Of a DNA stretch of 10,381 bases, positions 3,666-10,381 are shown one piece after another. This DNA comes from a virus (Duplodnaviria; Heunggongvirae; Uroviricota; Caudoviricetes): positions 1 to 10,381 of IMG/VR virus record IMGVR_UViG_2531839265_000011; one strand, written 5' to 3'. The stretch's first letter is position 1; every line of letters begins with the position of its first letter. The position numbers were made by a program, and so were the translations under genes. The notes beneath the pieces are model-generated. The model saw nothing but the letters and a program-made list of their open reading frames with translations. It was not told the origin of the DNA and searched no databases.

Positions 3666-3874
3666 AACTGAAACGTCTCCTTCACTTCCGGTTCATATGT
3701 CCAGTCAGGCAACACGATTTCCACCCCGGCGGGATACACCGGACCAAAGTCAGCCAGCCCGGGATTGGCTTCCAGTACCGCCGCCAGTGACTGGTTAAGC
3801 CCGGTACTGCCATAGTGTCTCTGACAGATATCATCCAGCATATCGCCGTCAGTAGTCCGCCAGTTTTTCGCCAT
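3656..3874 (-). CDS. gpX-like small tail protein with LysM-like motif
   Basis: 72-aa ORF; ATG 3874-3872; sequence DMLDDICQRHYG...LAAVLEANPGLADFGPVYPAGVEIVLP has a LysM-like pattern; lies between the gpU-like and gpD-like genes as in phiCTX/R-pyocin-type tail clusters. Confidence 0.65.
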   Translation of the reverse strand: MAKNWRTTDGDMLDDICQRHYGSTGLNQSLAAVLEANPGLADFGPVYPAGVEIVLPDWTYEPEVKETFQLWD

Positions 3875-4343
3875 AGTATTTCAGCTCCAGTGTGAACGTT
3901 TTGTTCTTCGGCGCACCGCCGGGAAGAAAGGACGTGGTGTTATCTGAATAGGCGGTTGCCACGAAATACCCCATCACATCACCTGTGCTCGAGACCAGAA
4001 GATGCGGGGCCGGATTGTCATCCACCATCTGAACCAGTGTATCAAGGGCATCCATTCCCACACCGTCACGAAATCCCGCGTGCGCCATACCTTCAAGGGT
4101 TATTGTTCTGGCCCCCTTGCCGGTATACTGCAGCAGATCGTTTTTTCCGATAAGCTGTTGTTCATCCCATCGCCATTCCATCGTGCGCTTCATGGCGTTA
4201 TAAGCAGCAGTATCAATACTGAATTCAAACTCACCAAACGACAGCATGACGCGGGAGGCGACATCCGTTAATGATCCCACCGCGTCCCATGCTTCACGCT
4301 CAAGCCGGTTTACGCCCCAGCCCAGCAAATCCACCATATTCAC
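3849..4343 (-). CDS. gpU-like tail protein (tail terminator/tube-cap family)
   Basis: ORF-track frame 3849..4343, start as listed is GTG overlapping the tape-measure stop; a more plausible start is ATG 4337-4335 (GGGGGTG 3 nt upstream) or the internal ATG 4247-4245. Size and position immediately after the tape measure gene fit gpU. N-terminus uncertain. Confidence 0.6.
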   Translation of the reverse strand: MNMVDLLGWGVNRLEREAWDAVGSLTDVASRVMLSFGEFEFSIDTAAYNAMKRTMEWRWDEQQLIGKNDLLQYTGKGARTITLEGMAHAGFRDGVGMDALDTLVQMVDDNPAPHLLVSSTGDVMGYFVATAYSDNTTSFLPGGAPKNKTFTLELKYYGEKLADY

Positions 4344-5994
4344 CCCCAGAATGCATCGCCATCGGTCATGCGGGAACGCTGACCAAAATGAATATCTCCC
4401 AGATTTTTCGTTACCCTGTCAGCCAGTTGTCCGGCATCCTCGCCAGGCTTCTGAGTGATGTTAAATTCCGCCCGTATCTGATATGTGGGTTTTACTTCCA
4501 CCTGGCTGACACTGCCGGGGGTATACTGAAGAGCCGAGAGAGGATCCGAATTACCCTGCCCCTGAACTGCTGCAGGAAGTCCGTCAATATAGGTGCGGGA
4601 TTTCTCTTTTATCGCCTTAAAATCAGGTTCTTCTTTCGGCCCCAGCAGAGGGTCGAGAAATGCATCAAACTTTTTATCGTCATGATTCCAGGGGAGATAA
4701 CCGCGGGTGTCTTTATAGGCCTGTACAACCTGTTTTGTCAGGTCAGGATTTTGCCTGAGCAGTTCATCAAACCATTCACCCTGACCGTTTTTCTGCGCCA
4801 CTGCTCTCGCCAGCTCCGGCGACCCCATTTTTGCCAGATACTCCAGCACTTCCCGTCGGTCCTCTCGCGGATCATCCGCCAGCCCCCACTCAATGGCTTT
4901 TTGTGTAATTCCGGCAAGAACTTTTCCAAATTTCCACATCCAGGCAGCCATGTCGATCAGCGCCGGCAGGGCATCATCACGAATAAATGCCCGGATTTTT
5001 TTCCAGCCCACCATTCTTAAACCAGGCCGCAAGGTCATCCGTCACCTGTTGAATATGTGGGGCAAGTTCATTACCCAGCTGTCCGCTGATTTCATCAATG
5101 GAAGAACTCAGAACATTACGGAGATTTGACAGTGCCACATGTCCCTGAACTGCGCCATCAGCCCCTGCCTTTGTCACCAGGTTATAGCGTTTCTGCTCAC
5201 TGATAAGCTCCCGGTAAGTTTTCCCTGACAGACGCATCCAGGTCAGAATTTTATTGGCCTCACCACCGAACAACGCATCTGCCATTCCGGCAGCCACCTG
5301 TTCATTCTCCACCTGCAGTAAGCGATCAAATAAAAATTCGACCTGCTCCTGGTTGCTTTTCCCTGTCATCACCCCGGCTTTCAGTCCCAGTTTGCCAAAG
5401 ACCTCCTGAATGGCCCCTTTATCCGTGGCACCATTATCATCGTCAAAAACCTTGTTCCGGTACTCCTCAAACAGATCACCGATGTTTTCACCGTTCAGCC
5501 CCATCAGTCGGGCCAGAGAATCCCATGACGCATAGGTTTCATAATCCACCCCATAACTGCGGGCTATCCCTGCCCGCTCTGCCGTCTCCGTATTCCGGTT
5601 AAGCACAGCGGCAGTGCCCGCTGCCAGCGTCAACCCGGAACCAACCGAAAGCCCAAAACCGGTTTTAAGGACCGTCCCCGCCCGCCCTTTCCAGCGTTCC
5701 AGGCGTTCCGCGCGCGCCAGTTTACGGTTAAATTTGTCCTGCTCTCCGGTGGCATCATGAATTTTTTTACCCAGCTTTTCATACTGCTTTCGCAGATCAG
5801 TAATATCCTGTCCAGCCAGTACGCCAGCCTGAATTTTTCGTTTCAGTACGTCCTGCTGGCGTGTCAGGCGAGCCACTTCCTGTGTTGCCCCTGATAATCC
5901 GTGCTTCAGTCCATCAACCGATTTTTTTCCACGACGGATCTATCGTGCCTCCGATCCGGATATTCGCTTTAAGGTTATCGCCCACCGTTGCCAT
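4340..5994 (-). CDS. tail tape measure protein, reading frame interrupted twice at A7 runs (frameshifted gene or homopolymer sequencing error)
   Basis: Position directly after the E/E' chaperone; strong RBS (AGAGGAAG, 9-nt spacer) before ATG 5994-5992; three consecutive open segments (5994-5917, 5939-4980, 5041-4343) in different frames joined by single-nt shifts at A7 runs 5922-5928 and 4996-5002; Gly/Ala-rich hydrophobic stretch GFGLSVGSGLTLAAGTAAV typical of tape measure proteins; conceptual product about 548 aa. Confidence 0.6.
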
Positions 5995-6420
5995 AACGTT
6001 GCTTCCTCTCTTCCGACTCCGCCAGCATCATTGCCACAAAATCCGTATACGGCAGCGCCATCACATCTCCGGGAGACCACCCGAACCAGGCACCGGCACG
6101 CCGTATCGCTGTCAGGATGCTTTCTTCTTCCGCCGGACCGGCGGCAGCAAAAAAACATTAAACTGACGCTCCAGGGCCAGGTAATCACACGCTTCCATGT
6201 TCATCATGTCTGCCGCGTCCATCCCACACAGACCGGCAATCATATCCAGATCAGCCTCTGCTTCCGGTTTGTTACTCCGGCGATGCAACAGACGATCGCG
6301 GACAGTGGGCGCACGCATAGTGACGTGCGTGATCGTCTGTCCTGATGCGGTGACATACGGCACGGATAACACAATTTCCACGCTGCTGGCAGGAACGCTG
6401 TTTTTTTCCGACATAAGCAT
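5975..6420 (-). CDS. tail assembly chaperone E+E' fusion produced by programmed -1 ribosomal frameshift
   Basis: After a -1 slip at T_TTT_TTG (6154-6148) the -1 frame stays open for 57 codons (FFAAAGPAEEESILTAIRRAGAWFGWSPGDVMALPYTDFVAMMLAESEERKQRYGNGGR) to TAA 5977-5975, ending just inside the start of the tape measure gene; this is the standard E/E' (G/GT-type) arrangement. Confidence 0.6.
6112..6420 (-). CDS. tail assembly chaperone, gpE-like
   Basis: 102-aa ORF between tube and tape measure; AAGGAG at 6426-6421; first ATG at 6420-6418 is too close to the SD, so ATG 6414-6412 (6-nt spacer) is the likelier start; contains the T_TTT_TTG slippery heptamer 12 codons before its stop, as in P2 E. 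Confidence 0.75.
   Translation of the reverse strand: MLMSEKNSVPASSVEIVLSVPYVTASGQTITHVTMRAPTVRDRLLHRRSNKPEAEADLDMIAGLCGMDAADMMNMEACDYLALERQFNVFLLPPVRRKKKAS
6148..6154 (-). other. -1 programmed ribosomal frameshift slippery heptamer T_TTT_TTG
   Basis: Minus-strand sequence GTT TTT TTG in the E frame; heptamer X_XXY_YYZ with X=T, Y=T, Z=G, identical in form to the P2 E/E' site. Confidence 0.6.
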
Positions 6421-6473: not shown

Positions 6474-6968
6474 TTAAACCCGGATGATTTTTTTCAGATC
6501 CGCCAGAACATTAACGCCATTAATACGACGTACAAACTCCTCCGGAATAATGCAGATGGTTTCCACACCGTCGACAGCCTGGCGGTAATAACTCAGCGAC
6601 ATTTCCACCGTCACCGAGGCGTCTGCCTGCGATGTTGCCGGACGTGCATCCGGCGTGATACTGGTGATCATCCCCTGCAGGGTTTCCACCTGTCCGCTGG
6701 TCGCATTCCCCACCTGATAGCCCTGGCGGACAACAATCTCCGGCGAATAAAGCCCGGCCTGTAATCCCAGCAGCGTCAGCATGGCAACATCATAGCCATA
6801 AATCTTAAACGAACAGGTCAGCGCTTCCATGCCGTCATCCACTGCCACCGGTGCATCCATTGCGCCGGTTTTGATATCCACTGTCGTGATATTAATGGCT
6901 GGCGGCGTGTATTCATGCGCCCCCTGAAGGCGGATCCCGCCAGGAAGAAATAACGCCCATGCGCGCAA
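6474..6968 (-). CDS. tail tube protein (FII-like)
   Basis: 164-aa ORF directly after the sheath gene; C-terminal MSLSYYRQAVDGVETICIIPEEFVRRINGVNVLADL resembles the conserved C-terminal region of P2-type tube proteins as I recall them. The in-frame ORF has no ATG (only TTG at 6968-6966); a strongly RBS-backed ATG at 6991-6989 lies in another frame (see findings). Confidence 0.75.
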   Translation of the reverse strand: MRAWALFLPGGIRLQGAHEYTPPAINITTVDIKTGAMDAPVAVDDGMEALTCSFKIYGYDVAMLTLLGLQAGLYSPEIVVRQGYQVGNATSGQVETLQGMITSITPDARPATSQADASVTVEMSLSYYRQAVDGVETICIIPEEFVRRINGVNVLADLKKIIRV

Positions 6969-6987
6969 CAGTTTTTTTCACCCGTCA

Positions 6988-8463
6988 TCATACTGTCAGT
7001 TCCTCCAGCGCCAGTTTATTGTTAATCATTGCCCGCAGTGTCAGGCGCTCCAGTGGTGACTTCGGCCCAAAGTCATAATCAATATACAACTGCCCTGCCG
7101 CCAGGGTTTCTGCAGTGTTCAGTTCATCGTTCAGCCATGCACTGCCACCGTGGATCGCGCCCAGATTTTTAAGCTGACGCATATAGGCATTAATGCTGCC
7201 AAGAATGTCGTCTGCCACATCCCGATCAAGCGGGCGATCGACATAAGGCAGCATGGCCTCCTGGATGCTGTCCTCAATCACATCTGCAGTGCGGCGTACC
7301 GGCTCAAAACGCCACTGACTGTGGGATGTGCACAGACGGTTACCCCAGTGTTTAAAACCGTCATGGCGAATAATGGTGGAGATATTTTCCATGTTCAGCA
7401 GGTTTGCCGTGCAGTTCTGCTCCCCGAGAATAAACGTATCCACCTGCTCCAGACCGGTGATATTCATCACGTCCTGGTTTGATTTGGACCACCACCACCC
7501 TTTTTCGTAATCAATACGGGCACGCAGCCCGGCAGCACGAGCCGAATATGGACGAAATATCGTTTGCCCGCTGTCATCCGTCACTGACACGCGCGGACGC
7601 AGCAGCTCCACACGCCCACCAAATGACGCGCGCCGCTGAACCACATCCTGCGGTGTTGCCATTGAGGGCGAGTCAATATAGGCCACAGCCCGCAGCTTCG
7701 CGGCATACGTTTCCAGCGCCTTTGCCACGCCATCATCCTCACTGTACCCCGTGGCGATGAGGATGCGCGGTTGATAGCCTGTCACGCCCTTACTTTCTGT
7801 CAGCGCCTCCATGGCCTGAATCACCGCCGCACGCTGTTCGGCCTCTTTCGCCTTTGTTTTACTTTCTGCGCGCACCACAATCACCAGCGCCCCAGTCTGG
7901 TCAAAAATATCTCGCAGGGCCGGGTATAATGTTCCGGCTGTGCCCAGTTTCCCGGCCTGAGTAATGGCCCCTGCCACCACCACTGGTGTATTGACCGGGA
8001 ACGCCTCATCTTCTCCGCCGGATAACGTCAGGCTGAACGGCAACACCACTTTATTTTCAGCGTCTCCTGCATTCAGGGTGCTGACAGCCGCCGTCACAGG
8101 CGAATCCCCCAGCGCATTCACCACTTCAGTCACACGGTCCGCCGTGGCGTTAACCTGGCTGTGTTCGTCCGTCCCCAGTGTTATCGTCAGGGTCGTACCT
8201 TTCAGCGAGGCCACTGTCTGCGCATTTTGTTCTGTGGCAGCCACAGCAACAACCGAAATCTTATTACCGGCCCGACCTTCCTGTTTCGCCGTGAAATCCA
8301 GCGCCGTTCCCAGCAGCCAGGAGCCGGCTGTGCCGGAAGCGCACACACCACCAGAGGCGTCCGGCGCTGTCCCCACCAGGCCAATCACTGCCGTGGAGAT
8401 GGTCTGCACGGCAACCGTGCCTGTCGTCAGTTCAATGGTTTCAACACCATGTAATCCGGACAT
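6988..8463 (-). CDS. tail sheath protein (FI-like)
   Basis: 491-aa ORF; ATG 8463-8461 with GGGAGA 5 nt upstream; N-terminus MSGLHGVETIELTTGTVAVQTISTAVIGLVGTAPDA, central PRILIATGYSEDDGVAKALETYAAKLRAVAYI, GWWWSKSNQ, IRHDGFKHWGNR and C-terminal AETLAAGQLYIDYDFGPKSPLERLTLRAMI blocks match the conserved segments of P2 FI-type sheath proteins from memory. Confidence 0.9.
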   Translation of the reverse strand: MSGLHGVETIELTTGTVAVQTISTAVIGLVGTAPDASGGVCASGTAGSWLLGTALDFTAKQEGRAGNKISVVAVAATEQNAQTVASLKGTTLTITLGTDEHSQVNATADRVTEVVNALGDSPVTAAVSTLNAGDAENKVVLPFSLTLSGGEDEAFPVNTPVVVAGAITQAGKLGTAGTLYPALRDIFDQTGALVIVVRAESKTKAKEAEQRAAVIQAMEALTESKGVTGYQPRILIATGYSEDDGVAKALETYAAKLRAVAYIDSPSMATPQDVVQRRASFGGRVELLRPRVSVTDDSGQTIFRPYSARAAGLRARIDYEKGWWWSKSNQDVMNITGLEQVDTFILGEQNCTANLLNMENISTIIRHDGFKHWGNRLCTSHSQWRFEPVRRTADVIEDSIQEAMLPYVDRPLDRDVADDILGSINAYMRQLKNLGAIHGGSAWLNDELNTAETLAAGQLYIDYDFGPKSPLERLTLRAMINNKLALEELTV

Positions 8464-8517: not shown

Positions 8518-9069
8518 TCAGGTATTTTGTGGCTGCTCAGGCCAGCTAATATTGTTGTATGTGGTCTTATCCGTAATAGCGCTGAAATCCATCGCCTGCA
8601 GCGATTTCGCGTAAATGCGGTACGCTTTCAGCTTCTCCCTGTCTTCGTCACTGATTAATCCCGGCAGCAGGTCTTTTTCCCATTCGCTGGTCATGATGCT
8701 GACCTGTTTTAACAGAGCATCGCGCTCATCTTCCGCTTTAAGTTTGTAGTCGAAGACAAATTTATCGTCGCGGTAAAACCAGTAACCAGGCACGGTTATA
8801 CGGCGATTAGCGGTAATATCAGGAACTTCAATAACACTGGCGTTACGGGGTTCAATGCCTGTCACATCCTTACCGACCCACACCACGCGCCCGTCTCCGG
8901 TGTAAACCATTTTTATGGTGTCACTGGCAAAATTCTTCTGTTCTTCATACCAGTTTTTGTCATCTTCCGAAAAAAGCCAGGTGATACCATGTTGTTTTGT
9001 CATCTGATATTGTTCTGCGGTTTTCGGATTGCCCGCAGTAATATTTTTAAATGCAACATTGTTAAACAC
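8518..9069 (-). CDS. tail fibre assembly protein (Tfa, gpG-like)
   Basis: 183-aa ORF starting (GTG 9069-9067) 8 nt inside the end of the upstream fibre gene; C-terminus ...TTYNNISWPEQPQNT carries the W-P-x-x-P ending characteristic of Tfa chaperones; position immediately downstream of a fibre gene. Confidence 0.8.
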   Translation of the reverse strand: MFNNVAFKNITAGNPKTAEQYQMTKQHGITWLFSEDDKNWYEEQKNFASDTIKMVYTGDGRVVWVGKDVTGIEPRNASVIEVPDITANRRITVPGYWFYRDDKFVFDYKLKAEDERDALLKQVSIMTSEWEKDLLPGLISDEDREKLKAYRIYAKSLQAMDFSAITDKTTYNNISWPEQPQNT

Positions 9070-10381
9070 TCGCCACGTTATACCAGGTGCCGTTAATCAG
9101 TTTCTGAAGCGGACGGTAATACACGCCGCCGATGTTATCTGCCGAATTACTTCCGGTTTCCTGCACATTAATACCGGATAACCCGTGGCCTGAAGGTGAG
9201 CGAAATGTCCAGGATACCTGGTTACCTCCCGGGTTGTAATACATTTCGGAACCATAACGCACATCCTGTACGCCGCCATTTCGCTGCTGATAACGGGCAT
9301 CGAAATTTCCATAGTTTGATGGGGTCATCTGTCCGTTTACAGCGAATGTGATACTGCCATCGGTATTTCTCTGGCTGTAAAAATGCCAGCCGGAATCATC
9401 ACCAAGCTCTGCAACTACAGGTCGGGATGAATTACCCCATAAATTAAACGTTGCGTTTTTCGTCGAGTTGTTGGCGCTGGATAACGTGAATTTTTTAGCA
9501 TTTCCGGCCTGAATATTTTTTAACGCTATCGCCACACCATTCTGGAAACGAAATACATGCTGTCCATTCGCATAAACATCCAGAATGCCGTCGCCGTTTT
9601 GTTTTATACCTGTATCGTTATCCCCGAAAGCAATTGAGTTTCCGCCCAGCGCGTTCTGAACGCCGATACCCAGCGCACCATTGACCTGAGAACCGCCGCC
9701 AACAGACACTTTATGCGACATAGATATTTCACCCGTCCGCAGATTAATAGTGAACGGGCGAAGTGGACCAATATCGCCATTTTCACCTTGGTTTTCCTGT
9801 GTTGGAATAAGGTGCAGGCACTCTTCCGAACGACGAAAAATCAGCCCAAAGGCTTCGTTGAAAATCCTCAGCGCATTAACACCACGGATTTTCAGTTCCC
9901 CGGTCATGGTGTCACCATCACGCTGAACGGCATTTTTTGCCTTGTCCACCGTGGGTTTTAATCCGAGGTTTTCAACAGCCTCATCCTTGTCTTCCACATC
10001 CGAAAGATTCTTTTTTCGTTGCAGATAGCGTCTGTCTCCGATTTCCTGAGTAATAATGGCCCTGTCCGGATCAACTTCCAGCACCACGTTTTGTGCGTGC
10101 GTCAGCCCAAGAACCAGCGTCAGAATAACTTCCTTGATAACGGAGTCCGTCTGGTCTGGTAAAAAGGTGTCGGGATAACGTCCGTACGCGATAAGCGTAC
10201 CTCTGTCGCTGATCATCCCCAGTTCACGAAGGGTTTTACCGGGGTATGATTTACAGTCAATCACAATATCCCCGCTGATGAAGCCCTCCTCCACCGCACC
10301 GTCGGAAAAGGGTTCCTGCCCGAATTCGCCGTACAACGATGTCATTGCTGCCATTTCATCCGGCGTGGATGGCAATGCCCG
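9062..10381 (-). CDS. tail fibre protein, P2 gpH-like (5' end truncated by window edge)
   Basis: Open to the window edge (no stop between 10375 and 10381; the listed M is a TTG, so the true start is probably upstream). N-terminal region (TLRELGMISDRGTLIAYG...) resembles the P2 H baseplate-attachment region; DGDTMTGEL collar motif; C-terminal region (NALGGNSIAFGDNDTGIKQNGDGILDVYANGQHVFRFQNGVAIALKNIQAG...VVAELGDDSGWHFYSQRNTDGSITFAVNGQM...LINGTWYNVASV) matches the conserved distal domain shared by P2 H / Mu S-type fibres as I recall them. Confidence 0.85.
   Translation of the reverse strand, partial: RALPSTPDEMAAMTSLYGEFGQEPFSDGAVEEGFISGDIVIDCKSYPGKTLRELGMISDRGTLIAYGRYPDTFLPDQTDSVIKEVILTLVLGLTHAQNVVLEVDPDRAIITQEIGDRRYLQRKKNLSDVEDKDEAVENLGLKPTVDKAKNAVQRDGDTMTGELKIRGVNALRIFNEAFGLIFRRSEECLHLIPTQENQGENGDIGPLRPFTINLRTGEISMSHKVSVGGGSQVNGALGIGVQNALGGNSIAFGDNDTGIKQNGDGILDVYANGQHVFRFQNGVAIALKNIQAGNAKKFTLSSANNSTKNATFNLWGNSSRPVVAELGDDSGWHFYSQRNTDGSITFAVNGQMTPSNYGNFDARYQQRNGGVQDVRYGSEMYYNPGGNQVSWTFRSPSGHGLSGINVQETGSNSADNIGGVYYRPLQKLINGTWYNVASV

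Follow-up and report, generated by a model that had tools for sequence, protein, structure and literature searches.

A frame break in the tape measure gene of an Escherichia coli prophage is very probably a homopolymer miscall in a draft assembly

The locus and its tail genes

The window, by which we mean the whole stretch of 10,381 nucleotides analysed here, is part of the 31.4-kb draft scaffold JH594577.1 of Escherichia coli 4_1_47FAA (GCA_000243195.1), and corresponds to the reverse complement of positions 4658–15038 in scaffold locus L004. The prophage to which it belongs sits beside potB in the E. coli chromosome. On the minus strand of the window lies a contractile-tail module in the order fibre and fibre assembly, sheath, tube, gpE-like chaperone, tape measure, gpU, gpX, gpD-like and a second fibre set, including the following genes.

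6988–8463, minus strand: tail sheath gene
6112..6420, minus strand: gpE-like tail assembly chaperone (PF10109)
4340..5994, minus strand: tape measure gene, 1655 nt as assembled (1653 nt and 550 aa in relatives)
3849..4343, minus strand: gpU-like tail protein (PF06995), directly after the tape measure gene and used as a synteny marker
Minus strand: gpX (PF05489)

Across L011 1–5937 and the window, lambda-like head genes (gpW, portal_2, S49 protease, decoration protein, capsid E and FI) are joined to a P2-like contractile tail, making the prophage a mosaic. It has two separate sets of tail-fibre and assembly genes. A scaffold gap of 69 N (L004 4589–4657) directly adjoins the window edge at 10381 and cuts the N-terminal part of a tail fibre gene, leaving a 30-aa stub and a 439-aa fragment in place of the 475 aa found in the related locus L008.

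The identity of the tape measure gene follows largely from its surroundings. Within the chaperone gene, a slippery heptamer, T_TTT_TTG, lies at 6148–6154 (minus strand), and the −1 frame of the gene is open for about 58 codons, an E′ extension that overlaps the first 20 nt of the tape measure gene and stops at 5975. The T7 run of this heptamer has the same length in relatives. From these sequence features we predict that the heptamer and the open −1 frame are a genuine programmed −1 frameshift of the P2 E/E+E′ type, an arrangement that marks the next gene as the tape measure gene. The position of that gene, after the chaperone pair and before gpU, gpX and gpD, is also the one expected of a tape measure by synteny, and RefSeq calls the intact orthologue WP_000246684.1 ‘phage tail tape measure protein’. 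The chaperone frameshift, synteny and the RefSeq label together support the name given to the gene in a first-pass annotation made from the sequence, and we conclude that the gene encodes the tape measure of a prophage whose contractile tail is P2-like.

Family searches bear on the same protein. Once the breaks described below are repaired, it matches the unannotated family phrog_3654 over its full length (9e-215), with partial matches, weak but significant, to six tape-measure PHROGs (1e-9 to 1e-4). The PGAP name of the orthologue varies between genomes, from tape measure protein to hypothetical, and no Pfam family is on record for the product of the intact homologues. An NCBIfam search of the protein returned only a sub-threshold match to flagellin, which we rejected as spurious.

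A frame break at a run of seven A

The tape measure gene starts at 5994. Within it, two minus-strand open reading frames (ORFs), 4977..5876 (299 aa) and 4340..5038 (232 aa), overlap by 62 nt, and from the upstream to the downstream ORF the frame changes by +1. The 299-aa ORF begins at a GTG inside the gene and represents an internal fragment rather than the N terminus, and the protein of the 232-aa ORF is deposited as EHP62764.1 (HMPREF0986_05227 of E. coli 4_1_47FAA). Only one run of four or more bases, read as T7 on the plus strand, lies within the overlap.

4996..5002, minus strand: A7 run on the coding strand (T7 on the plus strand); A6 in relatives

The ORF pair, the 62-nt overlap, the sole A7 run and the +1 switch had all been noted in the first-pass annotation, and each is present in the deposited sequence. 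The coding strand reads CTG GAA AAA AAT CCG and is translated, as assembled, to ...GGLEKNPGIYS*; beyond residue 332, the extra A puts the tape measure in the +1 frame. That removal of one A restores a continuous protein had likewise been claimed, and is borne out by translation, with the junction ...AAWFKNGGLEKIRAFIRDD... (GGLEKIRAF). The junction proposed earlier, LEKKIRAF, has one K too many and would need A9.

The break falls at residues 328–332 of the intact 550-aa protein. A truncation at about residue 330, as had been suggested, is therefore correct in position, but the gene as assembled is already broken at codon ~24 by another A7 run. This run and two more in the window differ in length from those of relatives.

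5922..5928, minus strand: A7 run (‘site 1’ of the tape measure gene, codon ~24); A6 in relatives
6972..6978, minus strand: A7 run in the tail tube gene; A8 in relatives
9044..9048, minus strand: A5 run near the start of the tail fibre assembly gene; A6 in relatives

With A7 at 5922–5928, the tape measure protein would stop after 26 residues. The tube gene (true coding sequence (CDS) about 6474..6991) is broken five codons past its ATG at 6991, and gene callers give a fragment of 128 or 164 aa instead of 172 aa. In the fibre assembly gene, an upstream GTG gives rise to a 183-aa ORF with a false N terminus, instead of the 180-aa protein.

Relatives carry a single intact gene

Because the tape measure region had no nucleotide match in a collection of 50,697 phage records (megablast), the comparison is based on E. 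coli chromosomes and assemblies. Over the 1.7-kb region, 74 complete E. coli genomes match at 80–98% identity, with a single 1653-nt CDS, and the alignment to relatives contains exactly two indels, at 5928 and 5002, both A7 in the window versus A6. In 49 complete E. coli genomes, a 91-nt probe placed across the break site found a match, each time over 90 nt and never with full identity, which means that all 49 have A6. Nine close loci, which hold the same prophage at the same chromosomal site beside potB, were also compared. All nine have A6 (including the nearest relatives L008, L017 and L019) and a 550-aa tape measure gene, together with a tube protein of 172 aa, a fibre assembly protein of 180 aa and a pepT product of 408–409 aa. 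In all relatives examined, the tape measure is one continuous protein of 550 aa (or 553 aa). Alignment of the two ORF fragments to intact homologues, the check that the first-pass annotation had put forward, finds them colinear with one 550-aa protein in each of the 49 complete genomes and nine close loci.

The nearest relatives allow substitutions and indels to be counted side by side. Relative to L008, the window has three substitutions and four single-base indels over 10.4 kb; over the same length it differs by two substitutions from L017 and by three from L019. All four indels relative to L008 lie in A runs of 5–8 bases, and each of them shifts a reading frame. The tape measure gene itself has no substitutions and two indels, and removal of one A at 4996–5002 and one at 5922–5928 yields a protein identical to that of L008 at 550 of 550 residues. 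An exact look-up among about 15 billion proteins found the 232-aa fragment in one contig only. By comparison, 24 contigs carry the intact 190-aa protein from the left end of the window.

Run-length discrepancies across the scaffold

Discrepancies of the same kind occur in the rest of the scaffold, in both phage and chromosomal genes.

L011 5194: capsid gene, G6 versus G5 in relatives, near the gene end; an artificial 481-aa capsid–FI fusion results
L011 5926: head–tail joining gene, A7 versus A6 in relatives; protein truncated to 76 aa
L014 13583: pepT, T5 versus T4 in relatives; gene split
L014 16948 and 16964: phoQ, A6 versus A7 and T5 versus T6 in relatives; gene truncated
L014 20390: mnmA, T5 versus T6 in relatives; gene split

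One further discrepancy is intergenic (A5 versus A6 in relatives), which brings the total to at least 11 in about 30 kb, 10 of them gene-breaking, or approximately one break per 3 kb. The runs err in both directions, some too long and others too short. In a 14-kb block aligned to L008, 4 of the 24 runs of six or more bases are discordant, and no indels were found outside homopolymers. The breaks extend to three of the core genes that flank the prophage in the chromosome (pepT, phoQ twice, and mnmA). Extrapolated to a 5-Mb genome, this density corresponds to well over a thousand frameshifted genes; such a load in core genes is biologically implausible and not credible for a cultured isolate.

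These counts bear directly on whether the extra A could be a real slipped-strand mutation in a decaying prophage, which would have a truncated tape measure and a non-functional tail, possibly within a mismatch-repair-deficient mutator. Real spontaneous indels are commonest in homopolymers, several tail genes are broken together, as expected of a cryptic prophage, and in an unrelated strain (SRR12061428, considered below) the corresponding run is A5, an isolated frameshift. Against this, the same class of indel breaks pepT, phoQ and mnmA within 10 kb of flank, and the disabled genes implied by the extrapolation are far too numerous. Indels outnumber substitutions, by four to two or three in the window and by two to none in the tape measure gene, which is the opposite of what normal mutational spectra show; nonsense mutations, larger deletions and insertion sequence (IS) insertions are all lacking; and the fragment is found in this one assembly alone. 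We therefore consider a genuine truncation with a non-functional tail, the second of two alternatives offered in the first-pass annotation, to be very unlikely. The mutator-strain version of it is rejected, given that frameshifts are so dense in core genes and substitutions almost absent.

The first of those alternatives, a homopolymer indel introduced in the assembly, is strongly favoured by the similar single-base discrepancies on the same scaffold. We conclude from these comparisons that the frame break is very probably an assembly artefact, a homopolymer miscall of A6 as A7, rather than a truncation or a recoding site: the indel lies inside a homopolymer, is absent from every relative examined and is accompanied by similar errors across the scaffold. 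The four indels against two or three substitutions, the identity of the repaired protein to that of L008 and the restriction of the 232-aa fragment to this assembly point the same way. The discrepancies as a group change mononucleotide runs by ±1 base, recur across genes that include core genes, and are absent from near-identical independent assemblies. The real gene would most likely be an intact, ordinary 550-aa tape measure gene, which the miscalled run in GCA_000243195.1, a draft at scaffold level from about 2011, would have split in appearance only. Sequencing chemistry may be the cause of the run-length miscalls. We presume that the platform was 454 pyrosequencing, as for the Broad HMP reference drafts of 2010–2011; no statement of the platform used for GCA_000243195.1 or strain 4_1_47FAA was found in the literature.

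Recoding, phase variation and a strain with A5

A different possibility is that the A7 run is a functional element that controls production of the tape measure or the tail, through ribosomal frameshifting, transcriptional slippage or a phase-variable contingency tract. Poly-A tracts do support slippage, the run at this site is A5, A6 or A7 depending on the assembly, and the module does employ genuine programmed frameshifting close by, for the gpE/E′ chaperone. However, the arrangement of two ORFs is not conserved, as all 49 complete genomes and all nine close loci have A6 and one ORF. Restoring the frame needs a shift of +1, whereas an A-rich heptamer favours −1; the break at 5922–5928 and those of the tube and fibre assembly genes would each require an independent rescue as well; and runs of A6–A7 are shorter than typical contingency tracts. 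A conserved slippery run with a two-frame layout, as recoding would predict, was not found among the relatives, which have A6 and one frame. Nor was run-length polymorphism, as phase variation would predict, found among close strains, which have A6 throughout (49/49 and 9/9), the single A5 case being in a prophage variant of about 90% identity. We regard a recoding or switching role for the run as having next to no likelihood. Programmed −1 frameshifting at the A7 run is rejected, since the shift needed is +1, the two-frame layout is not conserved and the three other breaks would each need their own rescue.

The A5 case deserves separate mention. The Logan assembly of SRR12061428 (L012 6991; NCBI EOR9241439.1/EOR9241440.1) has A5 at the same tape-measure run, which splits the tape measure into 344 and 203 aa. 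This is the sole frameshift in the tail module of that strain, in which the neighbouring tail genes are intact. The occurrence of A5 at the same run in another strain makes a genuine change of length at this site possible, and the A5 may possibly be a real mutation, in which case indels may recur naturally at this tract. It seems to us extremely unlikely that the A6 tract at codon ~331 serves as a genuine hot spot of slippage, at which natural A5, A6 and A7 variants switch tail assembly off and on. The A5 strain leaves unchanged the conclusion that the break in the window is an artefact.

Implications for the prophage and the assembly

Between the scaffold and L008, L017 and L019, the prophage differs by 2–3 substitutions per 10.4 kb, and the adjacent potB–mnmA chromosome by 135–188 per ~10 kb. 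Strains with 1–2% divergence in their chromosomal flanks thus share an almost identical prophage, a pattern that suggests that it spread horizontally and recently into a conserved site beside potB. Near identity in strains with divergent flanks implies recent mobility, which in turn suggests that this may be a functional phage with functional tail genes.

HMPREF0986_05227 and HMPREF0986_05228 are best taken together as a single intact 550-aa tape measure gene. The apparent decay of the tail module (the tape measure twice, the tube and the fibre assembly gene) is no evidence for a defective prophage, and other frame breaks, fusions and ‘pseudogenes’ of this assembly should first be checked for run length against relatives. 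The result matters mainly for data quality. The feature is real in the deposited sequence and, biologically, almost certainly an artefact.

Comparison with known systems

The tail module resembles that of bacteriophage P2 (gpT, gpE/E+E′) in having the same order of sheath, tube, chaperone with a T_TTT_TTG −1 frameshift, tape measure, gpU, gpX and gpD. It differs from P2 in its tape measure, which is 550 aa here (P2 gpT is 815 aa long), and in its head genes, which are lambda-like and not P2-like. The discrepancies resemble the errors of flow-based drafts (454 or Ion Torrent type), in which mononucleotide runs change by ±1 in both directions, many genes including housekeeping genes are split or fused, and the indels are missing from independent assemblies of near-identical DNA; 454 is the presumed platform here. 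Frameshifted tail genes inside an integrated prophage are also what is seen in pseudogenized cryptic prophages. Unlike those, however, this prophage has only homopolymer ±1 breaks, which occur at the same density in the adjacent core genes and with almost no substitutions.
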